64,000 nucleotides of DNA, from the NCBI GenBank assembly GCA_964605145.1, contig CAZSBG010000006.1:28788-92787 (forward strand), in the 5' to 3' direction. The notes beneath the pieces are model-generated. The model did not search any database and was not told the origin of the DNA. It worked only from the letters and a program-made list of their open reading frames with translations. Positions 8,101 through 39,943 of the stretch are shown in pieces (position 1 is the first letter of the stretch; each line of letters opens with the position of its first letter). The translations under genes were made by a program, and so were the position numbers. The DNA is from an uncultured Cytophagia bacterium (lineage in GTDB: Bacteria > Zhuqueibacterota > Zhuqueibacteria > Thermofontimicrobiales > Thermofontimicrobiaceae).

Positions 8101-8547
8101 AACGTGACCCTCAATTAATCCCTTTGCCTGAAGGTTATAGGAGCGATACATGGTATCGAAATCAGTCTGGCCCAGAGTTATCAGTTTTGTACCCGGGCCT
8201 ACAGACCCGGCAACGATTTTTTTTTTGTCTGCAGAATATTTATTAACAGCCCGGCGAGCAATGTCAGCAGCAACTTTGTTGATTTCAACCACCCGATCTT
8301 GCAATCCATACTCGGCGAGTACAATTACATTAGCGCCAAACGTGTTGGTTTCAACCACATCAGCGCCTACCTCCAAATATTTTTCATGGATTTTTTGAAT
8401 TTTTTCAGGCGCGGTCAAATTCAATACTTCGCTGCATCCGATTTTGCCATCCCACTCTACCTGTGTTGGATTCATGGCTTGAATTTGGGTGCCCATGGCA
8501 CCATCGAAAAGCACGATTCTTTCTCCGAACAATTCCCGGATTCGCAT
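5131..8547 (-). CDS. metH: Cobalamin-dependent methionine synthase MetH
   Basis: Its four modules are homocysteine S-methyltransferase, pterin-binding, B12-binding (DxHxxG region) and an AdoMet-activation domain. The track start at 8550 is GTG; the adjacent ATG at 8547 is preferred, with a GAGG RBS. Confidence 0.9.
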   Translation of the reverse strand: MRIRELFGERIVLFDGAMGTQIQAMNPTQVEWDGKIGCSEVLNLTAPEKIQKIHEKYLEVGADVVETNTFGANVIVLAEYGLQDRVVEINKVAADIARRAVNKYSADKKKIVAGSVGPGTKLITLGQTDFDTMYRSYNLQAKGLIEGHVDLFIMETCQDLLQIKTALLAIFDEMKAQDVKLPVIVSVTVETTGTLLLGSEIGAVMAALEPFDIDVLGINCATGPEQMHPYIKRISQQFDGPVICQPNAGLPENIDGALVYTLPVDEFVNIMSGFITEEGVQFVGGCCGTNPDFIKAMAEKIPTLTRPQREPEKFPSIASLFSERILKQDPGPFFVGERTNTNGSKKFREYVLNNDWDGVVSVARQQMKTGAHGLDLCVAFTGRNESADMKEAVSRIVKQVDLPLFIDSTDAHVIEKALQLAGGRCVINSINLEDGEDRVDKICQLAKRYGAALIALTIDENGMAREVDTKVEIAKRLYEIAVNRHGLRSKDIIFDALTFTLASGDESLSDSAANTLEGIKRIKNELDGVFTILGVSNVSFGLNPHTREVLNSVFLSEAVKAGLDLAIVNVKKIIPLYQIDAADREQCLNLIYNRGPENDLLTFIHYFDKKTGGIKRERIEEKKLSLEQKIMRQVVDGNSTGLEKLLKLALEKTGPLEIVNQLLIPAMKKVGDLFGAGEMQLPFVLQSAEVMKFAVDKLQPFMEKTEDHAKTSIVLATVRGDVHDIGKNLVDIILTNNGYKVYNLGIKCEIETILNKVQKVQADAIGMSGLLVKSTMVMKENLEEMKRRSVNVPVLLGGAALTKSYVEDVCQPILKQPVVYCLDAFSGLSSMGKIKSGALVNEFSAKPLNTKKKPKQQEEKPAGSGPPKIDRNVNIPSPPFWGERIVRGVDLGRVFTYLNETVLFRGRWGFRRGKLKSDEFENIIRHEARPALDEFKTRCKNEKLLVADVVYGYYPCNSENNQVIIFHPETQKEWKRLTFPRQKKAPFHCIADFFLPLNLGKRDVIALQVVSVGKRASEETKYLFETNQYKKYLLFHGLSVEAAEALAEYWHKQIRKELSMEAEDGEHIQDFVVQKYRGARYSFGYPACPDLSENRKIFEILKPEQIEVTLTNEDQMVPEQTTSAFVVHHPQAKYFTIE

Positions 8548-8785
8548 CACATCCTCACTTTTATTCCATTAAATTTTCACACTTCATCACCTAAATAAAT
8601 GTTATTTTATCAATTCAAAAAAGATCAACAAATAGTGTTTGGTCTTCATCGCTCTGCTACCAGCATTAAGTTGAATCAGCTTTAGCAGATTAAAGCTGAA
8701 CCGAAATATCTCTGAACCTCTGGCCTTTCAGAGATCATTCTGCAAGAGACTGAATAGTTTTCATCTTCAGCGATCTGCGCATTAA

Positions 8786-8820
8786 CAAAAAAAGGAGTTT
8801 GATAAATTTCAACAAACTCC
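8786..8820 (-). terminator. Rho-independent terminator downstream of the STAS gene, ending the long - strand locus
   Basis: In - strand orientation, GGAGTTTG-11 nt loop-CAAACTCC is followed by TTTTTTTG. Confidence 0.6.
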
Positions 8821-8852
8821 TGTTTTATATGAATAAAAATATTTTTCTAATT

Positions 8853-9566
8853 TTAATTCTGTTTAAATGTCTCTCTCTGAAAAAACTCAACCCTCTTTTT
8901 CTTGGAATTTAAGTTCAACTGTTTTAAATATCTAACCACCTGAAACCAGCTTAACTTTAAATTGCCGTACATCGGTGAATTTAACTCGCGCATAATTTTT
9001 ATGCTGCCATTCTCGGGATTTTCAATGACCAACTGTTTTATTTTTTCTTCGACGCTTTTATCCCCGGCATCCGACGAAATCATTTTATTTAAATACGCTT
9101 CTCTCTCGCTTGCATCGTCTTCGGAGTGAGAAGAATGACTCGTTTCTTCTTTATAACTTTCAGTGTCTCGTCTCACCTGACTGACACTTCGTTGTTCACC
9201 ACGCGGTCTGGATTTATCGAAATCAGCCACCGCATCTTCGATCGAATCGAAGGCTTTTAAAATATAATGAAATTCCAACAATTCAAATACTTCATACACG
9301 TCAGGAATCATGCCGATAAGCTTGAGGTCGCCACCTTTCTCCCGAATACCTTTAATCTCACTGATAAAAATACCCCAACCTGCGCTGCTTATGTAATCAA
9401 CATTGGACAAATCGATAATAATGTTGTAATTGTTGGCGTCTAACAAGGTTTCAAGAGAGTGTTCTAATTCTGCGGAAGTAGTCGTGTCAATATACCCACC
9501 CACCTTTATCACAGAAATATTGTTGTCAACACCTGTTTGTTTAACAGACAATTGAATTCCTTCCAT
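8853..9566 (-). CDS. STAS-domain protein (anti-sigma-factor antagonist-like) with a ~130-aa C-terminal extension
   Basis: The N-terminal ~110 aa (IKVGGYIDTTTSAELEHSLETLL ... DLSNVDYISSAGWGIFI) is a SpoIIAA/RsbV-type STAS fold. The C-terminal part is Ser/Glu-rich and then has a predicted helical domain. The track start is TTG at 9611; the ATG at 9566 preceded by GGAG is preferred. Confidence 0.75.
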   Translation of the reverse strand: MEGIQLSVKQTGVDNNISVIKVGGYIDTTTSAELEHSLETLLDANNYNIIIDLSNVDYISSAGWGIFISEIKGIREKGGDLKLIGMIPDVYEVFELLEFHYILKAFDSIEDAVADFDKSRPRGEQRSVSQVRRDTESYKEETSHSSHSEDDASEREAYLNKMISSDAGDKSVEEKIKQLVIENPENGSIKIMRELNSPMYGNLKLSWFQVVRYLKQLNLNSKKKRVEFFQRETFKQN

Positions 9567-9699
9567 CGAATACTCCAAGATGTATGATTCGCAAAATTTT
9601 CTTAAATTCAAATATAATAGAAAAACAAGTAAAAGTCAACAAAAAAATATGATTTACATCTTTCGTTTTTTTAATATACTATCTCATTTCTCTAAAAAT

Positions 9700-12600
9700 T
9701 TACTTACGATTTTTTAGTAATTCTTCAGCTTTGATAATATGATTCGAAATATCGTCTCTGCCGGGATCTAATTCGAGTAATTTTTTCCATTCCCCTATAG
9801 CTTCCTTTAACTTACCGTTATTCGCATAAATAACTCCTGTATTTTCATAAGCATCCGTATCTTTTGGATCCAGTTCTTTGACGCGAAGGTAAGCTGAAAC
9901 AGCCTTTTCGTATTGGTGGGAACGATAATAAGAGTTTCCCAGAATACTGAATGCTTCTTTGAACTCCGGATAAATTTTTGTAACTTGGAGGAATTGCTCA
10001 ACAGCTTGCTCGTAATTATGCTCATTATAAAATTTTAAACCCAGAATAAGGTGTTTCTCGCGAAGTGGGTCCTGTTTCGACAGGAATGAATTTGAATCTT
10101 CAGAATCATTTGTAACCTGGCTATTGGAAAAATTCATAAAATTATTCTCTTCGGATGCTCGTTTCTTTTCAGGATTTTTTGGCTGACCTTCGAGCACAAG
10201 CTCAGCTTCATCGTCCTGCAATTCGCCTTTTTCGAAAAATGAGATGTCCGATTCGATTTCATCCAATAAATCATTGAATGAAAATTCATCGCCCATAATT
10301 TCATCGTCCTCTAAAATATCCTGTTCATTAACTTCCGACACGTCCTGGACATCATCCAATAACTCCATGGTTTCATCTTGCGATTGATTCTCATCCTCTT
10401 CTTCGGAATCTTGAATTTCTTGTTCATCACTCAAGTCCAGTTTTCCATTATCGCCATTTTTATCCGTATCGGTTTGAAAAATTTCATTTTTAAAACTCGT
10501 TTCATCAACCAGTGTTTCGAAACCCAGATCGTCTGAGTTGTCTTCTTCAGAATCTTCGAGTAATTCATCTAAATTTATTGATGGTTTTGGTCTTTCCTGT
10601 TCTTCTTTCGGTTGATCAATTTCGTCAGGCTCGTCTGAAATTTCTTCTTTTGAATCTTCAAAGTCTGACGTTTCATTTAAATCCAAATCGTTTTCTTCAT
10701 CGTGTTCCCCCTGTTCATCCCAAATATCTTTGAAGCTGAAATCGTGCTCCAAGCCGAGATCATCAACGTCCTCAGCTTCTTCCGAAACGTCATCATCATC
10801 AAAATCAATATCGTCTTCCAGGTCAGTTGACTCTTCCTCTTCAAAAAAGATATCTTCCTCTGATTTTTCATCCGATGAATCGAAATCATCTTCACTTTCC
10901 GCAGTTTCTGATTCATCCTCGCGATGAATACTTGATTCATGCAAACCACCCTCTTCTTCATCGTCTTCTTCTTCATCCCGTTCTTTTTTGAGCAGGTCCT
11001 CAATTGGCATGGTCATCAGGCTTTCGAGGTAGAAGTTATCATCCGGATCCTTTGGCATCCTGACTTGCTTTGGCTTCCTGGGTTTATTTTTCTTTTCAAC
11101 GGGTCGTTCATCATCTTCTTCGTGACCGAGTTCTTTTTTCGATTCCTCCGGCGGCGGTGGTAAGGGAGGTTCGTCGTAGCTTCGGTCAAGAATAATCTTC
11201 CCGTCCAATGTTAACATCGGGGTACCCGGGGGTTTCATTCTCTTTTTCTTGCCTGACCGGGCGATATAAGCTTCCCGCAACTGCCGTGTGTTTAATCGAC
11301 TTCGAACGAGTTCATCATAGATTCGGCTTTCATTGATTTCCGTGTAGGTGTATTTTTCTGTGTTGAGTTCTTCGCTAATTCTCTTGGCACCAAATTCCGG
11401 ATGTTTCTTTATAATGTCATATATCTTCGTTTTTTCTTCGATACTCAGATGTTTCGCCTCGACGGCAATGGTTTCGTCAATGGAATAGGCGTCGATCCCT
11501 TCTTCTTCGAATATTTTTTTGTATTTATTATAGTATGCATAGGTTGTGATGCCTGATTCCTCACACGCTTCGCGGATATTTTTTCCGGCTAATATGGCGT
11601 TATGCGCTTTCTGCGCGCGATGCAATTCAATTTTTTCCGGCGAACTTTTTTCTTTGATGGCAACAACAGTGATATCGTCATTTTGGTCAAAGCCTTCTGT
11701 AAAAGAATGTATTTCATCTTTCAATTTATCGATAAATGCCTTGGCACGTAACGTTCCATGCTTACGTATCACATCCTGCAATCGCTCTTCACTGAACAAT
11801 TCACGGCGACCATTCATGGCCTCGGTGATACCATCGGTGTAAATCAATAGGATATCATCTTCGGCTAACTGAATTGTGTCCGATTCGATCGAACGTTTGA
11901 ACAATTCAGGATCCGGCAGTGAAATGCCCACCGGGAATCCCCTGGGATTTAAATAATACGTTTTCTTTGAACCCCGTCTGTAAAGAATCATTGGATTGTG
12001 CCCGGCGCTGGCGTAATTAATTCGTCGCTTTTTGGAATCAATGATGACATAAAACAGGGTCACAAACATTCCCTTTTTCATATCATTGACGACAAACTCG
12101 TTCACACGCGCCAACACCTCTGAAGCTGAACGAATGGAGCGCGCTTCGGTTCTCAGGGCAGTCCGAATCATTGTCATGATAAGTGAACCGGGAACGCCTT
12201 TTCCTGACACATCAGCAACGACAATCCCCAAAGTATCTTTATCCACTTCAACAAAATCGAAATAATCACCGCCAACTTGTTTGGCCGCTTCATAATGCGA
12301 TGCTATCTCGTATCCCTCCAGAACCGGGGTTTCTGCCGGAAGCAATGTCTGCTGTATATCCTGGGCCAGTTGCATTTCCTTTTGAATCCGCTCTTGTTCA
12401 GCGAGATTTTTCTGGGATTGTCGAAATTTATCCGTTATATCGCTAAAGGCTTTGGCAATCTCGCCCACTTCGTCGCCGCTATCGAAATCAATTTCGTCTT
12501 TGACATCTCCGCCATGACCCAGATCACTCACCCAGGTTGAGAGCTTGCGAAATGGATTCATTATTAAATAGATGAGCAATGTCACGCCGAGATAGCTCAG

Positions 12601-13593
12601 CGCCAAAATCATAAATGCTGTCAGAAGATCTCTCGTCCGAACCGAAGCCACCTTGCTGCTGACGACATCTTTTTGAAATTCCAGGTAGACGGTTCCAACC
12701 CTTACCCGAGAAGCATTGTATATATCGCTTACAAAGCTGTAAACTTCCGTTCCACTGTTGTCGTCTTTATATTTGTAGAGATTGGGACGTGGTTCATCGC
12801 GATCTGAGGGAATAACAAATTCCTGCCCCAGCAATGTTTCATCAGTTGAATTAATGATATAATTGGTCGTATCAGTGACTGACAGACGATAAAAATCGTC
12901 TTTTGACTCCTGAAATTCCTTAACTTTGAGCGCCACATAAAATATTTTCAAATCTTCATCTTCATTATCGATGATACTGCGGGCAATACTTTTGCCGGTA
13001 GGTCGCTCGATGGCAACAAATTCATCCAGCACTTCGTTCCCATGCTTGAAAAAATAATAGAAATATCCGATCGTAATAGCAACGAATAATATTAGTGCGG
13101 AAATGATTGAGTAGCGCATTTTCAAACTGACAGATATGGTGGGAGTCTGAATCACTTTTTTCTTGCGAAAAGAACTGACCCTGTATTTCGTCAGCCTGAG
13201 TTCATTGCCTTCTTCGGTATGATGGTATTCAATTTCATCCAGCAGCTTGCGCATGATAAAAATTCCCAGACCACCCTTTTTACCGATATCAACATACCGC
13301 TTCAAATCCGGGTCTGCAACTCGGGACGGATCAAAATATTTTCCCTGGTCGATAAGCACAACACTCATGCTGTTTTTCTTGACGATGACGCGCATTGTAA
13401 TCATGCCCTCCAGATCGCGGTAGGCATGCTTAATGATATTCGTCGCGGCCTCGTCAATGCACAGCTTGAATGCATTTACCACTGTATCCGGGAAGCTATG
13501 TTTGCGCCCTGCTTTGGTGACAAAATTCCGCAGTTCGCCCAGATAATCAATGTGAGCGGGAACTTTTATTTCTTCTTTAATCGCTGCTTTCAA
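9700..13593 (-). CDS. 1,297-aa multidomain transmembrane signalling protein. Domains, N to C: RsbW/SpoIIAB-like HATPase kinase, TM, periplasmic sensor, TM, HAMP, SpoIIE/PP2C phosphatase, HTH-like segment, ~370-aa polyacidic disordered region, TPR repeats.
   Basis: The N-terminus (FKLCIDEAATNIIKHAY ... GGLGIFIMRKL) matches anti-sigma-factor serine-kinase HATPase_c. There are two TM helices (aa ~160-182 and ~326-348). The PP2C motifs are YEIASHYEAAKQVGGDYFDF, VVADVSGKGVPGSLIM and YTDGITEA. The C-terminal TPRs are LILGLKFYNEHNYEQAVEQF.... Confidence 0.75.
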   Translation of the reverse strand: MKAAIKEEIKVPAHIDYLGELRNFVTKAGRKHSFPDTVVNAFKLCIDEAATNIIKHAYRDLEGMITMRVIVKKNSMSVVLIDQGKYFDPSRVADPDLKRYVDIGKKGGLGIFIMRKLLDEIEYHHTEEGNELRLTKYRVSSFRKKKVIQTPTISVSLKMRYSIISALILFVAITIGYFYYFFKHGNEVLDEFVAIERPTGKSIARSIIDNEDEDLKIFYVALKVKEFQESKDDFYRLSVTDTTNYIINSTDETLLGQEFVIPSDRDEPRPNLYKYKDDNSGTEVYSFVSDIYNASRVRVGTVYLEFQKDVVSSKVASVRTRDLLTAFMILALSYLGVTLLIYLIMNPFRKLSTWVSDLGHGGDVKDEIDFDSGDEVGEIAKAFSDITDKFRQSQKNLAEQERIQKEMQLAQDIQQTLLPAETPVLEGYEIASHYEAAKQVGGDYFDFVEVDKDTLGIVVADVSGKGVPGSLIMTMIRTALRTEARSIRSASEVLARVNEFVVNDMKKGMFVTLFYVIIDSKKRRINYASAGHNPMILYRRGSKKTYYLNPRGFPVGISLPDPELFKRSIESDTIQLAEDDILLIYTDGITEAMNGRRELFSEERLQDVIRKHGTLRAKAFIDKLKDEIHSFTEGFDQNDDITVVAIKEKSSPEKIELHRAQKAHNAILAGKNIREACEESGITTYAYYNKYKKIFEEEGIDAYSIDETIAVEAKHLSIEEKTKIYDIIKKHPEFGAKRISEELNTEKYTYTEINESRIYDELVRSRLNTRQLREAYIARSGKKKRMKPPGTPMLTLDGKIILDRSYDEPPLPPPPEESKKELGHEEDDERPVEKKNKPRKPKQVRMPKDPDDNFYLESLMTMPIEDLLKKERDEEEDDEEEGGLHESSIHREDESETAESEDDFDSSDEKSEEDIFFEEEESTDLEDDIDFDDDDVSEEAEDVDDLGLEHDFSFKDIWDEQGEHDEENDLDLNETSDFEDSKEEISDEPDEIDQPKEEQERPKPSINLDELLEDSEEDNSDDLGFETLVDETSFKNEIFQTDTDKNGDNGKLDLSDEQEIQDSEEEDENQSQDETMELLDDVQDVSEVNEQDILEDDEIMGDEFSFNDLLDEIESDISFFEKGELQDDEAELVLEGQPKNPEKKRASEENNFMNFSNSQVTNDSEDSNSFLSKQDPLREKHLILGLKFYNEHNYEQAVEQFLQVTKIYPEFKEAFSILGNSYYRSHQYEKAVSAYLRVKELDPKDTDAYENTGVIYANNGKLKEAIGEWKKLLELDPGRDDISNHIIKAEELLKNRK
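10083..11193 (-). repeat. Polyacidic low-complexity disordered region (D/E-rich, ~370 aa) within the multidomain signalling protein
   Basis: The coding strand is dominated by GAA/GAT/GAG codons. The Ser-rich track ORF on the opposite strand at 10730-10927 is an antisense artefact of this region. Confidence 0.8.
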
Positions 13594-13625: not shown

Positions 13626-15548
13626 CTATTTATTCCGCTGCCGTTGTCTCTCTTTTGCCTGATCGATGGCGTCCAATATTTCCTGGTTATAAGGTTGAAT
13701 TTCTAACAGCTCTTCCCAGGTTTTTATTGCGTCATTATATTTTTCAGCTCTATAGAGATTAATTCCTCGATTATACCGCTTGGTCATTTCCGGGGTCATT
13801 CGCTGTTTTTTCGCATTGGCGCGACGGTCTGCATCTTTATAGAATTTCTTTAGCTGCTCATTATTGGGCCGATGCTTAAGCGCCTCTTCGAATGAATTCA
13901 TCGCATTGATATAATCCTTTGTGATATAATACCGATATCCCTGCTGAAATAACTCATCGAATTGCATTTGCTGCTTGTATCGATTGCTGCGCGTTTCAAT
14001 TGCGTTAATTTGCTTTTGATCCGGATTCAACATACGCACATTGTTCAAAACACTGATGGCTTCCAGGTAGCGGCCCTTCCTGGCAAAATTATCCGCTCGG
14101 TTAATCAGCGAGAGTATTTTCTTTTCATAATCTGTATTTGCTTTGGCAATCCACTCTTTTGCCAGTACATTATTAGGATCGCGATCCAACATTTTCTGCC
14201 ATTCAGCAATGGCTTTTTCGTATTCATCGACTTCGTAGTGCGCCAATCCTGCATCAAATTGCCTGTCCAGGAAAATTTTCAATTCTTCGCGTCGTTTTTC
14301 TTCCTCATTACGGGTTCTGATTTCATCATAGGCTTGCTTAATTTTATCATCGCGTTTCTGAATTGTTGCTTCCGCCAATTTACGCGCTTCTTCGATCACC
14401 GTTGAATTTGGAATTTCATTCTCATAGCTGGTAATGAAATTGAATTCTCTCAACGCCCGGGCATAATCTTCAATTTCAAAATATTGTTTTCCGCGTTCCA
14501 GACTCTCCGCGATTTTTTCGTCCCGTTCCCAAATTCGCTGCTGTTCCACTTTCCGTTGAATTTCCTGCAGCCGCCGCTCTTCTGCTATTTTCACAAGCTC
14601 CTTTTTCGATTTTCCAAATGTCATGCTCAAAGAAATTCGGTGGCTTGCATCGAATTCATTTTCTGAAAATTTTCCATACGAGTAATCTATCTGAAACTTG
14701 TTAACCACTGCGCCAGCGCCAAAGGCAAGCTGATTGTTATTCAGCCCAACGCGCAGCATGGCGAAATTATTGAACACATATTCAGTGCCGGTGTGATATT
14801 TGAACGGCTCATATTCACTTTGCTCAAAATCCATAAAAATCGTGAACTGATTTCCCCATTCATTGGTTAAAATGGGCTTGGCAAATCCCATTCGGAAATT
14901 CAGCGGGTGGACATCTGTTTCGGAAATTAACTTCAGTCTCGGTCCGACAACATTTTGCAGCGCCACTCCAACAGAAAGCCCGCTCAAAAGTGCATTGGTA
15001 AAATTGGGTCGATATAAAAATCCAAGATCGAGTCCAACGCCTGTATCCGATATTTTAAAAATGCTTTGATGCTCAACCTTCAGGTTCACGCCGACACTGA
15101 TATTCCACGGCAACTGTTTTCCGTAGGAAACCAAAAACTGTTGATTGGAGAGTGAATTATCGTCCCCATAATAAACATTATCATTATCTCTTTCAGGAAT
15201 TCCACCGGTTCCAATGCTGATGGCGGCCACACCGAACGAGCCCAACGCCACTGTGGGATGAGCATAACCCACATAAAAATATTGAGTATCCATGACGAGA
15301 TTGGTATAAAACAAGCTCACGTTTTTTCTTTGAATATAATCCAGTCCGGCGGGATTCCAATAAACTGCGGTTGCATCGAACGGCATCGCAACGTAGGCAT
15401 TGCCCAGCGCCAGAGCCCTGGCGCCGACCCCAAGATTGAAATTGCTTTGCGTCCCTGCAAAACCATCATCTCCTTTAGCTATACCGGCAAACATACCAAA
15501 TGCCAGAAAAAAACTGAAAATCCCTATGAATAAATTTGATTTTCGCAT
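13626..15548 (-). CDS. FadL/PorV-like outer-membrane beta-barrel (N-terminal ~310 aa) fused to a ~330-aa TPR/coiled-coil C-terminal domain
   Basis: Signal peptide, then GVGARALALGNAYVAMPFDATAVYWNPAGL, the FadL/PorV-family N-terminal motif. The first half has alternating beta-strand-like segments. The C-terminal half is TPR-like (YEKAIAEWQKMLDRDPNN, YNDAIKTWEELLEIQPYN) and rich in charged coiled-coil. It starts 17 nt after the giant T9SS cargo gene. Confidence 0.65.
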   Translation of the reverse strand: MRKSNLFIGIFSFFLAFGMFAGIAKGDDGFAGTQSNFNLGVGARALALGNAYVAMPFDATAVYWNPAGLDYIQRKNVSLFYTNLVMDTQYFYVGYAHPTVALGSFGVAAISIGTGGIPERDNDNVYYGDDNSLSNQQFLVSYGKQLPWNISVGVNLKVEHQSIFKISDTGVGLDLGFLYRPNFTNALLSGLSVGVALQNVVGPRLKLISETDVHPLNFRMGFAKPILTNEWGNQFTIFMDFEQSEYEPFKYHTGTEYVFNNFAMLRVGLNNNQLAFGAGAVVNKFQIDYSYGKFSENEFDASHRISLSMTFGKSKKELVKIAEERRLQEIQRKVEQQRIWERDEKIAESLERGKQYFEIEDYARALREFNFITSYENEIPNSTVIEEARKLAEATIQKRDDKIKQAYDEIRTRNEEEKRREELKIFLDRQFDAGLAHYEVDEYEKAIAEWQKMLDRDPNNVLAKEWIAKANTDYEKKILSLINRADNFARKGRYLEAISVLNNVRMLNPDQKQINAIETRSNRYKQQMQFDELFQQGYRYYITKDYINAMNSFEEALKHRPNNEQLKKFYKDADRRANAKKQRMTPEMTKRYNRGINLYRAEKYNDAIKTWEELLEIQPYNQEILDAIDQAKERQRQRNK

Positions 15549-15565
15549 AGTACAAATCCTGTTTG

Positions 15566-18500
15566 CTATTTTATCACTGCAATTTTTATGAGTGCTGATT
15601 TTCCATTACCAGTGGATATTCTGGCAACGTAGACGCCGTTTAATACCTTATATCCCTGACCATTTCTGCCATCCCAAATCACATCCGAATCGTGCAAACC
15701 TTTTCGACCCTGAGGCTCGAGTTCAGAATAGGTGCGTGACCAAACCAGCTCGCCGATCAACGTATATATTTGTATTTTCACTTCAGTGTCTTCATCCAGG
15801 TAATAGACGAAATTGGTCACCGGCCTCCCGATTTCTCCGAAAGGATTGGGATAATTGCTGAACGCCTTGTCAAAATCCGCTTCAATTATTACCGATGGCT
15901 CAGATTCAAAATTAAGCGCTTCCAATGTTTGCCCATTGACATTCTTTAATTTCGGCGTTTGCCCGGATTCCTCATCATAAAGATAAAGAGAATTGACCGA
16001 ATCAATCGCTATTTGAAAATCACTAATTTCGGCTGTGGTTGCAATATCCACTTTGAACTGAACCTGGTTTTCAATTTCAGGTTTGAGCGTATCTATTTGT
16101 GAAAATAGAATTTCAATTGGATTTGACGTTGGAATTGCTGTTATCTGTCCAAAAACTTCATTGTTTTGCTGATTATTCACAACACAGACGCGTGAAATAA
16201 CCTGGGCCGGATTTGTAACAGGCACGCCAAATCGATCCTTCAATTTAATTTTAACGCCTGTAAACAGTATATTGTTCGAAAACGCATCGCCGGATGCCAG
16301 CAATTCCAGTCCCATCATGGACACGCCGGTATCCCCCCGGGCAATCGTGTTTTTTGTTGTTGTGGGCAACATACTCACAGTGACGCTTTTTTCTTCAGCA
16401 GAAATTGGAATCGAAACATTTTTCAGCAAGATTGCTTCTGCTGCAACAGGTAGATTTGAGTTTTCATCTTCCGGCCAACTCACGAGGTCAATCGCGATAT
16501 TGCTTGGATCTCTCTCTGATGTCGGTGCGGTGATTGTCCAGAACAGTGAATCATTATACGCAGCCGTCTGGGTTAAATCCTGCGCGATGGAATATCCCTG
16601 GCCTTCCGGCAAAGTTAACGTTGCATTGAAATTTCCCAAAATGTTTGCATCGCCGGTTTTTGAAAGATAAGCGCTCACTACAAAGTTTTGATTCGTTGAA
16701 ACGATACCATCCAGAGCGCTTGCCGGAGATAATATTTTACCTTTCAATTGAATTTCTGCCCGGCGAACCACGTCCACTTCCAGCGAATCCGATGTTCTGG
16801 TGAATGATATTCGACTGTTGGCATCCTGCGCTGTTAATTTCATCCAGATGTGCTGATCGTCGATTGTGCCTCCCGGCGTGGTGATTGTCCAATTCACTGT
16901 TCCCTGGTCGCCAACTCCCACCGGTAATTTTGGATAGGATTCCGGCGTTGTAAATCCTCCTTCCAATTGCAGTTGCACGGAAGGCGCGCCGGTACAGTTA
17001 AACCAGCTCACATCAGCTTCAATTTGAAAGGATTGATGAGTTGACAGAATTTTATCAATCGCCCCGACCGGTGATACAATCCGGAGATTCTCGATCCAGG
17101 CATTTGCCGATTGTTGCGTCTGAACATAGTAATATTTTGATCGGGTCGGCACCATTGCTTTTTCATTTGTATTCACATCTTTGGGTATCGTATTGATGGT
17201 GACAACAATTGGTGCTTTCAGGGTTTCGACTTCAGGAGCCAGCAATCGCCAGGTTACAGGAATATCCGGCTGGAACGGTTTCACTGTATCGTCCTCCGTG
17301 GTGACGCCGGTTGCTCCAAAATCGATGCTCAAATACGCCGCGCCTTCAAGAGGTGCATCCCCAGAATTAATGACAATCGCACTCAAATCGAATTCCTGTC
17401 CCATGGAAAGTGTGCTGTCGGTGGAAGGCCAGGAAATCCATGCCCGATCGATCAACAACGTCGCCCGATTTTCAACTACGACAGAAATACTGTCAGATGC
17501 CGTGACCTCATCGCCTCCAACGGTTCCTGTGACCAGAACTTTTATCCACTTCTCATTGGAATGTGCGTTTTCAGGAGCGATAAGTTCCCAACCGGCCACG
17601 TCTGCGACGTTCGCTTTGATTGAATCTGTGCCAGGCGCAAATCTGTATCCTGCCGGGAGGTTCAATCTGGCGTTTGCGCTGGTGATGTTTTCCGACTTCA
17701 TAATATCTACCTGAACCCAAAAATTCTGAAGTGTGGATAAAGTATCATCCAGCGCCCCTTCAGGCGAACTTATTTCGAATGATTCCACGGCAAGCTCCAG
17801 AGGCACCGTTCTCACCACAAGTGAATCAAACGGGTCCGTATTTTCTATCAAAGCAAATGAGCCGGTATTTTCATCCAAAGGCGGTTTTGAAATCTTCGCG
17901 ACAATCGTATCGTTACTGGACGCATATGAAGGCGGCACGACCTGCCATTCCACTGTTTCATTAATTTCAAACGATGTGGTATCGGATGATTTTTGTTGTT
18001 GGTCGACCACGACAAAATAATTCTGCGGCATGAATAAGGCCAGTTCGCCGCTGGCGTCCACATCTGCTGTTCCGAGATTTTCAATTTGAACCTGAAATGG
18101 CGCGACCTGGCCAATCGAGTAAATCGAATGTTCCTTATTGATGGAAATTTTCAACAGGGCCGGATCGTGCACACGAACCAACGCTGTGGAGTCAGATGCT
18201 CCACCGATTGTAGCCGGAAGGCCGCTGCCGTGTGAAATAGCTGATTCAATTCGCACTGTAAATTTCACCTGTTCAGTGGCCACGGACTGTGCCGCAACAT
18301 TGAAAGTAGCAATGGCCTCTCCTGAAGGTAAAATATTATCGATATTCACAGAGGGTATGATGTACCCAGGCGCTGTTAAACTCACCAGCACATTATCAAC
18401 TTGTTCCCCCCCGGTATTACGGATTTTTGATCTCACGGAAAAAGCCTGGTTTGTGTTCACCTGGCCGATATCGTACTGGTTAATATTTCGACACACCGGT

Positions 18501-21500
18501 TCCGTAAAATCGATGAAAACATCTGCAGACGGACGAACATAAACCGCGCCTGAGTCTGCCACCTGAAAAGTTGTATTTGTATTTAAATAGGTTCCACTCA
18601 AATTTAGTTTTATTTTTGCCATTCCGCCCAAAACACCGGTACTTGTCACGCGGTAAATCAGCGTATCGGCTCCATTCCAGGACAGCGTTAAATTTGGATT
18701 ATTTTCAAATTCGAGTGGCGCCACGATGGTGTAATCATCCTGCTCATTCCCGGTAATTATGATGGATACATCCTCTCTGTTTGGCGGATCCAATTTTATG
18801 AATCCCGCTCCGCTATCTTCAACAGCCACGATAATTTGCCATTCGAAAGGACTCAGCGCTCTGACCGTATCCTGCGATGGCGAAATGGAAACAATTTTGA
18901 ACTTGCCTGGTCGCTGTACAGTGACTGTATCCGTCGAATCGACTGAGGGGCTGATAAAAATTTTATCAGGCTCCGTCGGTGTATTTTCTGCAAATGCGGT
19001 ATCAATTGAGGCGGAGAATACTTCATCCCAAATCCAGTCCGATGACGCCTGTACATTGAACTTTAGCGTATCCGTGCTCGCGCCTTGCACAATTTCAAGG
19101 GAATCCACCGGATTCAAAATAGTTGATGTACTATCACTAATTAACGACATTTTGATATTTTGGGCCGCGTCTTCTCCCTGGTTCTGGACAAGAACGGCTA
19201 TCTGGAAAACCTGATTATTATCCACATACGGCGCATTGGGCGCAATATTCACAGTTTTCAGAATTCGAATATCGGCCGGCATTTCTACCTTAATTGTTGT
19301 GCTATCTTCAGCGGTTTTTTCTTCCTGACTGTTTATCTCCTCGGCAAAAACCGATACATGAATCGTTCGACTGCCTGCAACAGAACCGGTTGTGTCCACT
19401 GAAAAAATCAGGCTGTCCGTAGCGCCGGAAGGCAGCTTGAAAAAGCCGAGTGTTTCAAAACTTATTGGGAAACTGACCACATAATTTGTGTCATCCCCAA
19501 AACTCACAAAGTCATTCAGGTGTGTCGAATCGATTGCAATATCTCCGCCACCGTTATTAGTTAGCGAAATAATAGTCTGCCAGGGCATTGATTGATTTAC
19601 TGTTACTTCTGGTTGGGATGTTCGAATATAATCTATAACAAGCTCACCCGGCGCCTGCACCGTTACCCCGGTCACTTTGCTTTTGATGATTTGACCGCTG
19701 ATCATATCATTCAAATAAACTGTTCCTCCAATGGTAACTGAACCGATTGTTGTGCCGGTTTCATCAACCGTTACTATCAGCGTATCGGTCAATCCGGCAT
19801 CGAGCAAACTATCACCACTTGTCTTGAATGTGTCAGGATATAACATCTGGTACTCGCTCGAAATATCTGAACCGCCATAGGTAAAATTTACCCGAGCGCT
19901 ATCCAGCCGCAACGGCGCTCCCCCATTATTGCGAATTACCATGTTCAGAAACCAGTTCTCAGCCTGACCGCTGGTGACCGTTCTCTGACTGGGATAAAAA
20001 TCGACTATTTCCAAATCAGATGCTTGTTTGACATACCATTGATCGGTTGTGTCTGCGTTCAAATCCGAATAGGGTAGTTCTGAGTTTTCATCGCTTGCAT
20101 AGACTTTTCCATCGATTGTTATGCTGTCGAGTGTGGCATTTGTGCCTACCGTTACGGTAAAGAACAGACTATCCAGGCTGTGCCCTGCGATTGAGGTTGG
20201 ATTCGTCGGATAAGGCACGAGCGCATATTCGTCACTCACATCTAAAATTGGTGGCGTTAAATTTGAATAAGAGAATCTCACTGAATCCACAATCGCCGTT
20301 GCATCCCCATTATTCTGAATCCTTGCGGAGATAATTGTATTTGTCCCCTGGGTAACGGTATCTGCATCAGCTTTCACTCTCAAAAATTGTAGTGAAGGAG
20401 GCGTTTGAACCAGCCATTTATCCGTTTCATTGGCTGCCACATCGCTTACAGAACTGCCATTTACCCTGCAATTAATGAAACCATCGATCTGGATTGAATC
20501 TGTCAATGCGTTTGACTTCACATTCACTAAAAAACTTAGGGTCTTATTTCCATTTCCTGGTAACACTGAAATCGTATCATTACGACTCACAATATAATCG
20601 CCTGAACGATTTGAATAACCGGGTGCAGGGCCGGTAAATTCTAATCCAGCGCCATCAGAAATTATCGTGGCATTTGAAGCGCCATGATTTTTCACGGCCA
20701 TCAGAACCGTTATATTTTGTTGATTGCGGCTCACTTTATCAAAATCTGAACTAACAGACAGAATCTCCAACCCGGAAATAATTATGCTGGTATCCCCAAC
20801 TGCACTTCCCCTGACAACACTATTCGCCTGAACGAGAGCCGTTCCACCTGTTACACCTGCATTGACAACGAATGAAATTTGGCCTGCTGTGTCTGATACA
20901 ACCTGTGTGCCTCCGATACCCGGATTTTCATCAGGTGTTGTAATGGTACCCAATGTTGTTGACACGGTGAAATATTCGCCGCTGGAAATTGGATTGTTAT
21001 CGCTGTCACGAATTGTATCCGACGTAACCACAGAAAACGAATCAGGATCGGCCGGTATTATTTCAGGAACAGGATGAAGTACAATTTCGCCTATCGGTAC
21101 GCCGGGATTTACAGTAATGAGTCCAGTCGTATCATTTTCTGCTGTAGCATGCACGGCCAGAATTTTTCCGTGCGCCGGCGCTGTTGATGGCGAGAAATCA
21201 AGCGTTGAACCGGTCCACAATACAGCCGGCGCTAATGTACTGTCACTGGACCAATCTACAACCGCCGGCCCGAGATAAACATTTCCTTCGTCATAAGCAG
21301 CCGCATACAGTGTCAATGTTTCATCGGCTGAAATGGTACGCGTCGTCACCACATTGCCGGCGCCATTATCTGCATCGCGAATGAGCACGTGGTGAATGGC
21401 TCCCACAGTAAATGTACCTGTCGAATCGGCTCCCACACTCACACTGTCAGCATAAATTCGTCCACTCGTATAGGGCGTAGCCGGACTGAACATTGTGCTC

Positions 21501-23656
21501 GTTCCCTGCAATGGAGTTGGCGTATCCAGATCTCCGGTGGTTCCCCAGTCTGCAACCACTTCTCGAATGTAATTATCATACTGGTCGTATCCTGCAGCGT
21601 AAAGGGATATTTGATCATCCAGATTCAACATATAATCACCAACCTCGGAGCCCAAACCACCCGGATTATCCCGAATGACAATGTGATTCAATCCATCTGG
21701 TTTCACATTGAAATTATTCGAAACACCACTCTCGCCGGAGCCGGCTGCAGTGATTTTATTATCCGTATATTTTTTTGTGATTGTTAAATTTCCTGACCAG
21801 GTGCCTGCACTGAAATTTCCTGTGGAACCGGGGCTCAAAGAACCGGACTCATCCGTCAAACTGACCGCATTTGTAAATCCGGTCACTATATTTTCGTATG
21901 CATCGTTTGCTTCAATAGTCACCGAGAAAGGTGTTCCAGCAGTCTGCGGGCTGGAAATATCTGAAATTGAAAAATGATCCAGTGATGCCGGGTTCACATT
22001 AAAGCTGTTTGACGTTCCGTTTTTATCGCTGCCATTGACAATGATTTTATTACTGGAACCAGTTTTCGTGACAATCACATTACCATTCCAGCTCCCTCCA
22101 CTGAAACTGCCTGAAACCTGGGGAGTGAGTGTGCCTGTTAAATCACTCATCGCCACAGGACCGGCGTACGTTGGTATTGTATTCCCTTCTCTATCCTCTG
22201 CCGTTACAGTTATCGAAAAAGAATTACCGGCTGTTTGTGGTGTTGAAATAGCGTCAATAGTAAAATGATCTAACGCTCCCACTTGTACATCAAAAGCATT
22301 TGATGTCCCGGTTTCGCCTCCGCCGGATCGCTGAACGCTGATCTGATCATTGGTAAAATCGGCTGTAATCTTCACCTGACCGTTCCATTCTCCGCCGCTG
22401 AAATTGTCACTCTGATTGGGCGAGACTGTCCCGCTATTATCCGAAATATCTACTTTTCCGGTAAAACTTGTTACGGTGTTATCATAATTGTCCTGGGCAG
22501 TAACTGAAATGGAAAAATATTCGCCCGCAGTTTTGGGAGAAGAAATCGGCCCGATGTAAAATTTTGCCAAACTTCCGGGATTCACATTGAATAAATTCGA
22601 TGTGCCAACTTTGGAACTCCCGGATGCTGTAATGTAATTATCGCTCTGGCTTTCCGTGATTGTTACGCTTTGCGTTAATGAACCTGAGCTAAAAATATTT
22701 GATGTTTCGTTGAGCGAACCGGTAAGATCGGTCAACAATACAGTGCCAGTAAAACTTTCCACAAGATTCTCATACTGATCCCTCGCAGTAACTGTAATGC
22801 TGAATGACGTCCCGGCCGTTTTTGGACTGGTGATTGTGTTAAATGTAAAATGATCCAGGCCGGCAGGCAAAACATCAAATTCAGATGACATGCCGGATAT
22901 ATCATTATACGTGGCTGTAATTTTATTATTCGACCTGCTTTTAGTAAACGTCACCGTACTATTCCAGACACCTGCTGTGATGCTGCCGGTAGATGTTGGG
23001 CTAATAGTATCGGTTAAATCTGTCAGCGCAACAGAAGATGTATGCGACGTGACCGTATTGTCGTATGCATCCTGTGCGGTAATTGTGACAGAAAAATTTG
23101 AACCAGCCGTTGCATCGCCACTTGTACTGACATCAAAATGATCCAGCGCTCCGGCAGCAATTGAAAAATTTGGTGTATTCCCGTCATCGATATGGGTGTA
23201 TCCCTGGGTCATGGTAATAATTTTTACGCTATAATTATCCGCATCCGGGTTATTCCCCACAGTTCCGATACTGATTTCCACCTCGGTTGATGCCGGAACT
23301 TTTGTTCCGGTGCCATCACGTTCGATCATGACCGAGTCACCATTAACATATTGTATGGAAACACCGCCATTGATACTGCCATCCTCCGAATCGGCAATTT
23401 GAACGCCCGTGAGATCGAATCCCGACGGAAAAATTAATTTAATTTTGCCATCCACCGGGATGCCGTCATCAGCATTATTCCCTGTCGCTGAAGTTGTGAA
23501 AGTAAAAGTATAAATCGCGGACTCCCCGGCAACATTATCACTCAAACTTGTACTCATATTTGCTAGATCACCTTGCGCAAATACTATAGTTGCATTCCCT
23601 GAAAAAATGAGAATTATTACTATTACGATCCCTGCTCTCAGATGTCTTATCCTCAT
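15566..23656 (-). CDS. Giant (~2,696-aa) cell-surface protein with tandem Ig-like repeats and a C-terminal type-A T9SS sorting domain
   Basis: Signal peptide MRIRHLRAGIVIVIILIFSGNATIVFA (ATG at 23656; the track start at 23671 is TTG). At least five ~95-aa tandem repeats share the motif LDHF..ISSPQTAG..FS.TVTA.D.Y.N...F.G.V.L. The last ~90 aa (NYPNPFGE...VYVARISTGNGKSALIKIAVIK) match the Por_Secre_tail / TIGR04183-type CTD. Confidence 0.85.
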   Translation of the reverse strand: MRIRHLRAGIVIVIILIFSGNATIVFAQGDLANMSTSLSDNVAGESAIYTFTFTTSATGNNADDGIPVDGKIKLIFPSGFDLTGVQIADSEDGSINGGVSIQYVNGDSVMIERDGTGTKVPASTEVEISIGTVGNNPDADNYSVKIITMTQGYTHIDDGNTPNFSIAAGALDHFDVSTSGDATAGSNFSVTITAQDAYDNTVTSHTSSVALTDLTDTISPTSTGSITAGVWNSTVTFTKSRSNNKITATYNDISGMSSEFDVLPAGLDHFTFNTITSPKTAGTSFSITVTARDQYENLVESFTGTVLLTDLTGSLNETSNIFSSGSLTQSVTITESQSDNYITASGSSKVGTSNLFNVNPGSLAKFYIGPISSPKTAGEYFSISVTAQDNYDNTVTSFTGKVDISDNSGTVSPNQSDNFSGGEWNGQVKITADFTNDQISVQRSGGGETGTSNAFDVQVGALDHFTIDAISTPQTAGNSFSITVTAEDREGNTIPTYAGPVAMSDLTGTLTPQVSGSFSGGSWNGNVIVTKTGSSNKIIVNGSDKNGTSNSFNVNPASLDHFSISDISSPQTAGTPFSVTIEANDAYENIVTGFTNAVSLTDESGSLSPGSTGNFSAGTWSGNLTITKKYTDNKITAAGSGESGVSNNFNVKPDGLNHIVIRDNPGGLGSEVGDYMLNLDDQISLYAAGYDQYDNYIREVVADWGTTGDLDTPTPLQGTSTMFSPATPYTSGRIYADSVSVGADSTGTFTVGAIHHVLIRDADNGAGNVVTTRTISADETLTLYAAAYDEGNVYLGPAVVDWSSDSTLAPAVLWTGSTLDFSPSTAPAHGKILAVHATAENDTTGLITVNPGVPIGEIVLHPVPEIIPADPDSFSVVTSDTIRDSDNNPISSGEYFTVSTTLGTITTPDENPGIGGTQVVSDTAGQISFVVNAGVTGGTALVQANSVVRGSAVGDTSIIISGLEILSVSSDFDKVSRNQQNITVLMAVKNHGASNATIISDGAGLEFTGPAPGYSNRSGDYIVSRNDTISVLPGNGNKTLSFLVNVKSNALTDSIQIDGFINCRVNGSSVSDVAANETDKWLVQTPPSLQFLRVKADADTVTQGTNTIISARIQNNGDATAIVDSVRFSYSNLTPPILDVSDEYALVPYPTNPTSIAGHSLDSLFFTVTVGTNATLDSITIDGKVYASDENSELPYSDLNADTTDQWYVKQASDLEIVDFYPSQRTVTSGQAENWFLNMVIRNNGGAPLRLDSARVNFTYGGSDISSEYQMLYPDTFKTSGDSLLDAGLTDTLIVTVDETGTTIGSVTIGGTVYLNDMISGQIIKSKVTGVTVQAPGELVIDYIRTSQPEVTVNQSMPWQTIISLTNNGGGDIAIDSTHLNDFVSFGDDTNYVVSFPISFETLGFFKLPSGATDSLIFSVDTTGSVAGSRTIHVSVFAEEINSQEEKTAEDSTTIKVEMPADIRILKTVNIAPNAPYVDNNQVFQIAVLVQNQGEDAAQNIKMSLISDSTSTILNPVDSLEIVQGASTDTLKFNVQASSDWIWDEVFSASIDTAFAENTPTEPDKIFISPSVDSTDTVTVQRPGKFKIVSISPSQDTVRALSPFEWQIIVAVEDSGAGFIKLDPPNREDVSIIITGNEQDDYTIVAPLEFENNPNLTLSWNGADTLIYRVTSTGVLGGMAKIKLNLSGTYLNTNTTFQVADSGAVYVRPSADVFIDFTEPVCRNINQYDIGQVNTNQAFSVRSKIRNTGGEQVDNVLVSLTAPGYIIPSVNIDNILPSGEAIATFNVAAQSVATEQVKFTVRIESAISHGSGLPATIGGASDSTALVRVHDPALLKISINKEHSIYSIGQVAPFQVQIENLGTADVDASGELALFMPQNYFVVVDQQQKSSDTTSFEINETVEWQVVPPSYASSNDTIVAKISKPPLDENTGSFALIENTDPFDSLVVRTVPLELAVESFEISSPEGALDDTLSTLQNFWVQVDIMKSENITSANARLNLPAGYRFAPGTDSIKANVADVAGWELIAPENAHSNEKWIKVLVTGTVGGDEVTASDSISVVVENRATLLIDRAWISWPSTDSTLSMGQEFDLSAIVINSGDAPLEGAAYLSIDFGATGVTTEDDTVKPFQPDIPVTWRLLAPEVETLKAPIVVTINTIPKDVNTNEKAMVPTRSKYYYVQTQQSANAWIENLRIVSPVGAIDKILSTHQSFQIEADVSWFNCTGAPSVQLQLEGGFTTPESYPKLPVGVGDQGTVNWTITTPGGTIDDQHIWMKLTAQDANSRISFTRTSDSLEVDVVRRAEIQLKGKILSPASALDGIVSTNQNFVVSAYLSKTGDANILGNFNATLTLPEGQGYSIAQDLTQTAAYNDSLFWTITAPTSERDPSNIAIDLVSWPEDENSNLPVAAEAILLKNVSIPISAEEKSVTVSMLPTTTKNTIARGDTGVSMMGLELLASGDAFSNNILFTGVKIKLKDRFGVPVTNPAQVISRVCVVNNQQNNEVFGQITAIPTSNPIEILFSQIDTLKPEIENQVQFKVDIATTAEISDFQIAIDSVNSLYLYDEESGQTPKLKNVNGQTLEALNFESEPSVIIEADFDKAFSNYPNPFGEIGRPVTNFVYYLDEDTEVKIQIYTLIGELVWSRTYSELEPQGRKGLHDSDVIWDGRNGQGYKVLNGVYVARISTGNGKSALIKIAVIK
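15569..15850 (-). other. Type-A T9SS C-terminal sorting domain of the giant surface protein
   Basis: YPNPF ... IWDGRNGQGYKVLNGVYVARI ... K terminal pattern. Confidence 0.75.
21750..23160 (-). repeat. In-frame tandem coding repeats (~285 nt units, about five copies) encoding Ig-like domains near the 5' end of the giant gene
   Basis: Recurrent nucleotide and protein-level units (...LDHF.ISDISSPQTAG.PFSVT..A.DAYEN.VT.FT..V.LTD.SG.L.P...G.FS.G.W.GN..ITK...NKI...GS...G.SN.FNVNP..L). Confidence 0.7.
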
Positions 23657-23704
23657 TTGATGCTCTTCCAAAGTTTTTGTTCGTCAATTCTTTTTCATCT
23701 GTCT

Positions 23705-39784: not shown

Positions 39785-39943
39785 ATTTTCATCGTATTAA
39801 ATTGAAATTACTACAAATATACTAAATAAAATTATCAAAGTCAATTCCATTTTTATAACCTCAACATATTTTGAACTTTATTGCATTTTTTTACGTTTAA
39901 TTTTGGTAACCAAATACATGTGTATAGTTGACAATTCAGCGAT

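Follow-up and report, generated by a model that had tools for sequence, protein, structure and literature searches.

The gene under study lies at 8853 to 9566 on the minus strand of a 64,000-nucleotide stretch of contig CAZSBG010000006.1 (hereafter the window), from an uncultured bacterium placed in Zhuqueibacterota. It encodes a protein of 237 amino acids (aa) in which a STAS domain is connected, through a disordered linker, to a basic C-terminal module with helix-turn-helix (HTH) fold. The neighbouring gene encodes a kinase/phosphatase that harbours a homologous module. The features of the gene are the following, with the basis of their assignment in brackets (pI, isoelectric point; pLDDT, predicted local distance difference test).

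8853..9566, minus strand: coding sequence of the STAS-linker-HTH protein, 237 aa plus stop (open reading frame, translation, full-length homologues, TIGR00377)
9213..9566, minus strand: STAS domain, aa 1-118, acidic, pI 4.2
9384..9386, minus strand: codon of Ser61, the predicted phosphorylation site (HMMER alignment, invariance)
9057..9212, minus strand: disordered Ser/Glu-rich linker, aa 119-170 (no column conservation, low pLDDT)
8856..9056, minus strand: C-terminal basic HTH module, aa 171-237, transposase-type (HTH_21/HTH_32-like)
9611..9639, minus strand (read 9639..9611): sigma-70-type promoter, TTGACT-N17-TATATT (conserved across orthologous loci)
9573..9576, minus strand: GGAG ribosome-binding site, 6 nt before the ATG (read from sequence)
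8788..8826, minus strand: intrinsic-terminator-like hairpin followed by U7, 27-65 nt past the stop codon (inverted repeat, RNA fold)

Anatomy of the STAS-HTH protein

The original prediction had described an unusual C-terminal extension of about 130 aa on this STAS protein, composed of a Ser/Glu-rich linker and a folded module. The extension comprises 119 aa, and it is real and not the product of a frameshift or a gene fusion. A homologue search covering 5.8 billion proteins returned 2170 homologues, the best 120 of which were inspected: nearly all measure 227-244 aa, the exceptions being one form of 259 aa and some truncated entries (203-223 aa); identity to the query is 57-100%, and most reach a coverage of 95-100%. 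Their sources are numerous independent assemblies that carry the label candidate division KSB1, Zhuqueibacterota or Calditrichota. Full-length homologues from independent assemblies therefore rule out a frameshift or fusion error. The STAS-linker-HTH architecture is retained in more than 120 protein clusters from KSB1/Zhuqueibacterota/Calditrichota. Alignment of 31 of the homologues reveals three zones, with aa 1-118 almost invariant, aa 119-170 without a conserved column and aa 171-232 conserved again. The idea that the extension might be unstructured and not conserved thus applies to the linker, not to the module.

The gene model is well defined by its signals. The reading frame is unbroken from the ATG at 9566 to the stop codon at 8853-8855, and 30 of 30 aligned orthologues start with MEGIQ or a near variant thereof (one MDGIQ, one MEGIH). 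Of 21 orthologous loci, 16 retain the promoter; its distance to the ATG is 38-51 nt in 15 of these and 83 nt in the remaining one (L012). Where no promoter match was seen (five loci), the encoded STAS protein is in every case more divergent; four of the five have a gap of ~30-40 nt to the partner gene, which suggests co-transcription of the two genes, and the fifth (L013) has one of 334 nt. A GGAG stands 4-9 nt ahead of the start codon in 17 of 21 loci, and the terminator-like hairpin folds with a centroid energy of -11.7 kcal/mol next to its U-run. Nothing was found that speaks for a wrong start, a frameshift or an annotation or assembly error that fused two genes, the sole ambiguity being an alternative upstream TTG at 9611. 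The longer start was rejected because it overlaps the -10 hexamer of the conserved promoter. Considering also the continuous frame, the conserved or well-placed promoter, ribosome-binding site and terminator, the uniform length of the homologues and the conservation of the C-terminal module at protein level, we regard the chance of such an artefact as negligible. Near-consensus promoters of the same type (TTGACTTT-N-TATATT) are found also at 39816-39844 and 60023-60051 (minus strand), the former just upstream of a BioY-family gene. They suggest that the organism, an uncultured member of the Fibrobacteres-Chlorobi-Bacteroidetes (FCB) group, uses canonical sigma-70 hexamers.

The N-terminal half is a SpoIIAA/RsbV-type STAS domain by fold and by sequence signature. 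Pfam matches STAS to aa 13-112 (E 6.7e-18), the NCBIfam model TIGR00377 (anti-sigma factor antagonist) is passed with 62.2 bits against a cutoff of 53.45, and the domain is modelled by AlphaFold2 with a pLDDT of 70-85. Alignment had been proposed as the way to find the phosphorylatable residue, and it was effective: HMMER alignments to SpoIIAA (1auz) and RsbV (6m36_B) place Ser61 opposite their phospho-serine, at the start of helix 2. These serines are S58 of SpoIIAA and S56 of RsbV. Both S60 and S61 are invariant among the 31 aligned sequences, as is the motif DYISSAGWG in which they are embedded. Ser61 is accordingly the putative phosphorylatable serine.

The linker, which includes SHSSHSEDDASEREA, is of variable length among orthologues, and AlphaFold2 gives residues 121-168 a pLDDT below 50. 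Its Ser/Glu-rich character had been recognized correctly. Just ahead of the HTH module, close orthologues share a semi-conserved motif, (R/K)x(D/E)xYL(D/E)xM (aa 154-164; 9075-9107, minus strand), which AlphaFold2 renders as a low-confidence helix. It may represent either a short linear motif or a stretch by which the HTH module is extended at its N-terminus.

The module that follows has a helix-turn-helix fold. In the AlphaFold2 model of the full protein, the C-terminal tail reaches a pLDDT of 75-88; modelled alone from an alignment of 56 sequences, the module reaches 89, with a predicted template modelling score (pTM) of 0.74 and four helices. It is basic (pI 9.9, net charge +5.5), and K175, P184, L195, L214, K223 and R225 are invariant. 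The 119 residues past the STAS domain give no Pfam match in the window sequence, even at E up to 10. HTH_21 (PF13276) is matched by 4 of 20 orthologues (best E 1.1e-6) and HTH_Tnp_Tc3_2 by 3 of 20, and relatives match the NCBIfam models of IS3 and IS481 transposases within their N-terminal DNA-binding regions. The fold search that had been proposed for the C-terminus was informative in part: the four-helix HTH was predicted, and the top Foldseek matches in the Protein Data Bank (PDB) include the Pax paired domain and the DNA-binding domain of SETMAR, none of them significant (best E 0.63). A sequence search of the module against the PDB gave a RecA linker match only, which was dismissed as spurious. 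From these matches we take the module to be, most probably, a divergent and domesticated HTH domain of transposase type (HTH_21/HTH_32-like). No curated Pfam or NCBIfam family covers it in the STAS context, and no description of it was found in the literature searched.

The partner, the gene cluster and the spread of the module

The gene immediately upstream encodes the presumed partner of the STAS-HTH protein, a multidomain protein of 1297 aa with the following features (TM, transmembrane segment; TPR, tetratricopeptide repeats).

9700..13593, minus strand: partner gene, 1297 aa, with RsbW-type kinase, TM, sensor, TM, HAMP, PP2C, HTH_28 plus HTH_32-like region, acidic stretch and TPR
13186..13560, minus strand: HATPase_c_2 (anti-sigma-type Ser kinase), partner aa 12-136 (Pfam E 5.6e-27, profile positions 2-127 of 127)
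11653..12240, minus strand: SpoIIE/PP2C phosphatase, partner aa 452-647 (Pfam E 8.5e-51, profile positions 2-190 of 192)
11257..11619, minus strand: IS481-like bipartite HTH region (HTH_28 plus HTH_32), partner aa 659-779 (NCBIfam IS481 model positions 2-115)

The kinase domain is matched also by the RsbW models of NCBIfam. Two hydrophobic segments flank a domain of ~140 residues that is recognized as sCache_3_2 in orthologue representatives, and Pfam finds no Response_reg match in the protein. The second half of the HTH region is homologous to the tail of the STAS protein (BLASTP E 7e-6), and profile comparison of the two modules by hhalign returns a probability of 97.4% and an E of 1.1e-11 over 65 columns. 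No other part of the partner is as well conserved as the HTH region, whose identity amounts to 82-92% at 11 of the 12 closest loci (72% at L010), against ~48-75% for the whole protein. Between HTH and TPRs lies an acidic low-complexity stretch of ~300 residues (aa ~850-1150; 10144-11043, minus strand) with a net charge of about -110. Its role as a conserved ligand of the basic module was considered and rejected, given that orthologues of 797-916 aa are too short to contain it yet keep the HTH.

Twenty of the fetched genome loci include upstream sequence, and in 19 of these the partner gene is the direct upstream neighbour of the STAS gene; L020 and L021 have other genes between the two, and the flank of L014 is too short. 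The longer loci show the order of giant protein, 640-aa protein, kinase/phosphatase and STAS-HTH, with the STAS-HTH gene last in the cluster and followed by the terminator. In the window, the two upstream members are the following.

13626..15548, minus strand: PorV/PorQ-family outer-membrane barrel with coiled coil and TPR tail, 640 aa, conserved cluster member (NF033709, 136 bits against a cutoff of 90; synteny)
15566..23671, minus strand: giant secreted protein with immunoglobulin (Ig) repeats, 2701 aa, conserved cluster member (sequence, CARDB, synteny)

The giant protein has a signal-peptide-like N-terminus, as read by eye, besides its Ig-like repeats, and its C-terminus shows a weak type A sorting domain of the T9SS (type IX secretion system), scoring 21.5 bits with TIGR04183, below the cutoff of 23. 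The pair of giant and PorV-like genes (13626-23671) is conserved together with the signalling genes across KSB1 and Calditrichota, and the giant-protein orthologue in L024 extends to 5189 aa.

The absence of a sigma or anti-sigma gene from the locus, as originally claimed, is upheld in its first half only. The upstream gene at 9700-13593 encodes an RsbW-type kinase, and no sigma factor was found among the open reading frames of at least 140 aa scanned from window position 1 to ~45 kb (the gene at 5131-8550 outside the scan). The orthologous loci were compared by tblastn with the window genes, genes unique to those loci falling outside the sigma-factor scan; the comparison recovered only the four cluster genes and unrelated flanking genes. 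These results bear on the conventional interpretation, in which the protein is an anti-sigma factor antagonist, the kinase domain of the neighbour sequesters a distal sigma factor, unphosphorylated STAS protein sets the sigma factor free and the module merely tunes localization or stability. The match of STAS and HATPase_c_2 domains to the SpoIIAA/RsbV and RsbW/SpoIIAB families speaks for it, and a distal sigma factor is possible with 64 kb of the genome in view. Besides the negative outcome of the scan, it must be reconciled with the precedent of SypE, the best-studied fused kinase-phosphatase partner, whose target SypA has no assigned sigma factor (PMC4517449), and with the strong conservation of the module across two phyla, which argues for more than an accessory. 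We consider the conventional interpretation quite improbable.

The downstream neighbour of the STAS-HTH gene varies. It is a gene for 1139 aa (5131-8550) in the window and in L001, resembling methionine synthase as judged by sequence, and a ThiI-domain gene in L002, L004, L005 and L006. The 300-nt leader of the gene at 5131-8550 contains two hairpin-forming inverted repeats at 8676-8740; an Rfam scan of 8400-9800, including this leader, found no RNA family. Farther away, the window encodes a protein of 885 aa with patatin-like phospholipase, POTRA and Omp85 domains (39944-42601, plus strand).

To what extent the module is used outside this gene became clear from an exhaustive search with its profile among 1.84 billion representatives, which gave 173 proteins at E up to 1e-3. 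A STAS domain is present in 83 of the 150 top matches and in 74 of the 89 matches that are at least 190 aa long, and in STAS-containing matches the median distance between the end of the module and the C-terminus is 1 residue. A module profile built from STAS proteins only also retrieves the kinase/phosphatase partners from the whole library. Neither the STAS-HTH protein nor the partner nor most family members contain an rve or DDE domain. The module is found, in addition, at the C-terminus of FHA-domain proteins after a linker (P0214, P0245), one FHA-module protein being encoded beside a Ser/Thr kinase gene (L027). Two N-terminal units of HTH_28 plus module occur on membrane glycosyltransferases of family GT2 (P0189, P0219, P0258, P0262), and five tandem copies occur in one protein from a Chlamydiales metagenome-assembled genome (P0124). 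The C-terminal position on STAS proteins and after FHA domains fits with a reusable output domain of phospho-signalling proteins.

More distant STAS-module proteins from Calditrichia, with longer linkers and a size of 332-429 aa, are encoded in exopolysaccharide loci with the order Bac_transf, polysaccharide deacetylase, STAS-module protein, Wza-like exporter, Wzc-like protein, epimerase and FemAB-like protein. The paralogues are located as follows.

L026, 3237-4235: Calditrichia STAS-module paralogue
L028, 5413-6663: Calditrichia STAS-module paralogue
L029, 7001-8290: Calditrichia STAS-module paralogue
L022, 8001-9206: Calditrichia STAS-module paralogue

The first three are situated between a gene for a DUF3473-type polysaccharide deacetylase and the Wza-like plus Wzc-like export genes; the fourth has an epimerase gene and a DegT-family gene as neighbours. 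No kinase or phosphatase gene adjoins any of the four. Another STAS-module gene sits between genes for a GNVR protein and a TPR protein. In L020 (9947-10790) and L021 the STAS gene is a tandem duplicate encoding short proteins (133 and 135 aa in L020) without linker and HTH module. The kinase/phosphatase of these two loci retains the HTH region, and the direct upstream neighbour of the STAS genes is a TPR gene.

A proposed sigma-factor-independent partner switch

Based on the collective evidence, we lean, at somewhat better than even confidence, towards understanding the STAS-HTH protein as the substrate/output half of a sigma-factor-independent partner-switching pair, with an output that is probably DNA-binding. 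In the proposed mechanism, the RsbW-type kinase domain of the upstream-encoded membrane sensor would phosphorylate Ser61 of the STAS domain, and the PP2C domain of the same membrane protein would remove the phosphate again. The flexible linker of ~50 residues would tether the STAS domain to the basic, transposase-derived HTH as output or targeting domain, which most probably binds DNA. Whether the protein stays bound to the kinase at the membrane or, free (or dimeric), can act at promoters would then depend on the phosphorylation state of the STAS domain. Candidate targets are the genes of the co-conserved surface cluster, namely those for the Ig-repeat giant, with its T9SS-like tail, and for the PorV-like protein, and for the Calditrichota paralogues the exopolysaccharide loci. 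The analysis establishes the domain anatomy, its conservation, the position of the serine, the HTH fold, the synteny and the presence of the module on both partners; phosphorylation, DNA binding and the identity of the regulated genes are what we infer.

Among the conceivable outputs of the module, DNA binding is ranked as the most likely, by a judgement that leans only slightly in its favour, because of the analogy with CapK/CapS (Chambers et al., EMBO J 2026, PMC13373217). The original suggestion that the STAS domain delivers an output domain is in keeping with the HTH identity, with the recurrence of the module on the C-termini of STAS and FHA proteins, and with the CapS precedent (PMC13373217); the function of that output is itself a matter of interpretation.

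Several observations weigh against a role of the module at promoters. The intergenic regions upstream of the STAS gene and of the giant gene contain no inverted repeats, and no conserved operator was found; the sole conserved non-coding element is an ordinary strong promoter, which is present also at two other window sites. When metagenomes were scanned with the N-terminal part of the giant protein, one usable orthologue only was obtained, and its upstream context differs. One HTH on a flexible linker of 50 residues imposes no fixed spacing for a dimeric operator. Distant relatives (L020, L021) use short STAS proteins without the module. Of the related STAS systems that control polysaccharide, All4160 acts post-translationally (PMC13555669), and the same is proposed for SypA (PMC4517449). 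Finally, the module is present also in the membrane-anchored partner and in membrane glycosyltransferases, with which protein docking fits equally well.

The last of these points leads directly to an alternative in which the HTH-like module is a protein-protein docking or address tag instead of binding DNA. Its counterpart would be the homologous module of the kinase/phosphatase or that of other carriers; the substrate would so be tethered to the enzyme or to a machine for envelope biogenesis, and secretion or polysaccharide synthesis would be controlled post-translationally. The occurrence of homologous modules in both partners, the module region being the most conserved part of the partner, is consistent with such pairing, as are the N-terminal modules of membrane GT2 glycosyltransferases, the modules that follow FHA domains, and the paralogues encoded between polysaccharide deacetylase, Wza and Wzc genes. 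The target of SypA is proposed to be a protein (PMC4517449), and All4160 is a STAS-regulated glycosyltransferase (PMC13555669). However, fold and sequence family of the module are those of DNA-binding HTH domains; the conserved basic residues K175, K204, K223 and R225 and the pI of 9.9 suit a polyanion; the paralogues of the exopolysaccharide loci lack an adjacent module-bearing kinase; and neither this analysis nor the literature consulted gave a sign that this HTH class dimerizes. Docking in place of DNA binding is, in our judgement, a possible but rather doubtful explanation.

There is also a wider proposal. The domesticated transposase HTH could be a shared address tag in the Ser/Thr phospho-signalling of KSB1 and Calditrichota, worn by kinase/phosphatase, STAS substrate, FHA proteins and glycosyltransferases alike, and it could guide its carriers either to a shared DNA site or towards one another. 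We put this forward tentatively, as a conjecture that we think unlikely to hold. If it were true, the system would constitute a previously undescribed sigma-independent partner switch, in which an envelope sensor is coupled directly to the expression or assembly of giant adhesins with T9SS-like tails and of exopolysaccharides.

The preferred interpretation, a STAS protein with its own probably DNA-binding output, has importance for how such proteins are annotated. Partner switches are usually read as regulators of sigma factors, and databases label this protein "anti-sigma factor antagonist". If our interpretation is correct, the label misleads for the whole family, which comprises at least 83 STAS-containing clusters at 50% identity and whose members with organism names belong to two poorly known FCB-group phyla, KSB1/Zhuqueibacterota and Calditrichota. 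The STAS domain would in this case be equipped with an HTH output of its own, derived from a transposase, and be linked to an envelope sensor and to surface-protein or exopolysaccharide loci. The family also offers a concrete candidate for a long-open question, that of the target on which SypA and similar STAS proteins of polysaccharide loci act.

Comparison with known systems

With the Bacillus systems SpoIIAA/SpoIIAB/SpoIIE and RsbV/RsbW/RsbU, the pair shares the STAS fold, the position of the phospho-serine, and the HATPase_c_2 kinase and PP2C families. The canonical Bacillus antagonists are, however, single-domain proteins of ~110 aa that work with a separate anti-sigma kinase and have the sigma gene in their operon, none of which holds here. 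By fold and motif, the STAS-HTH protein belongs to the STAS antagonist superfamily, yet it is not a canonical antagonist, for it has two domains and no sigma factor was found nearby in the scanned part of the window.

A comparable organization of the regulator is that of SypE/SypA of Vibrio fischeri (PMC4517449), where kinase and phosphatase domains likewise reside in one polypeptide and address one STAS serine (as predicted from the domains in the present pair), the genes belong to a locus for a cell-surface polymer, and SypA is free of an assigned sigma factor. In contrast to the membrane-bound sensor described here (TM, Cache, HAMP), SypE is a cytoplasmic response regulator with a central receiver; and SypA is a STAS-only protein of ~100 aa without output domain, whereas the present STAS protein carries an HTH. 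The Anabaena system All4160/HenR/Alr3423 (PMC13555669) provides the precedent of a STAS domain fused to its own effector, which is phospho-regulated there and controls envelope polysaccharide. The effector of All4160 is a glycosyltransferase, not an HTH, and its kinase and phosphatase are separate proteins (PMC13555669).

The module itself compares with the N-termini of IS3, IS481 and IS630-Tc1 transposases (HTH_21, HTH_32, HTH_Tnp_Tc3_2) in its sequence pattern, in the three-helix HTH and in the basic tail after the third helix, and the partner carries the complete bipartite arrangement of HTH_28 plus HTH_32 (PF13565). Unlike in the transposases, a DDE/rve catalytic domain, terminal repeats and a mobile-element context are all missing, and the module, which forms a distinct and conserved subfamily, stands at the end of the protein.

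CapK/CapS is the closest characterized analogue. CapS is a repressor composed of STAS and winged HTH; the GHKL kinase encoded upstream, itself with an HTH, phosphorylates the equivalent serine, and phosphorylation breaks the STAS-mediated dimer and frees CapS from DNA (PMC13373217). The STAS-HTH protein resembles CapS in its N-terminal SpoIIAA-like STAS domain with conserved phospho-serine position and its C-terminal HTH-type domain, and the partner resembles CapK as a GHKL/anti-sigma-type kinase that is encoded immediately upstream and carries an HTH; CapKS involves no sigma factor. No CapS-like chain was found by sequence among PDB entries. The differences are equally clear. CapS, of 184 aa, has a MarR/ArsR-like winged HTH fused directly to the STAS domain, whereas here an HTH_21/HTH_32/Tc3-like domain follows a disordered linker of 52 aa. 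CapK is a soluble HTH-STAS-GHKL protein, activated by single-stranded DNA and without phosphatase, whereas the partner sits in the membrane as a Cache/HAMP sensor and combines kinase, PP2C, acidic stretch and TPR. CapKS are located ahead of phage-defence operons, whereas the present pair closes a surface-protein cluster and PADLOC gave no defence-system matches. The STAS-HTH protein is not a member of the CapS family, as HTH class, linker, partner architecture and genomic context all differ. If our interpretation is correct, the two systems together would imply that STAS and DNA-binding domains were joined more than once, with the use of unrelated HTH classes.

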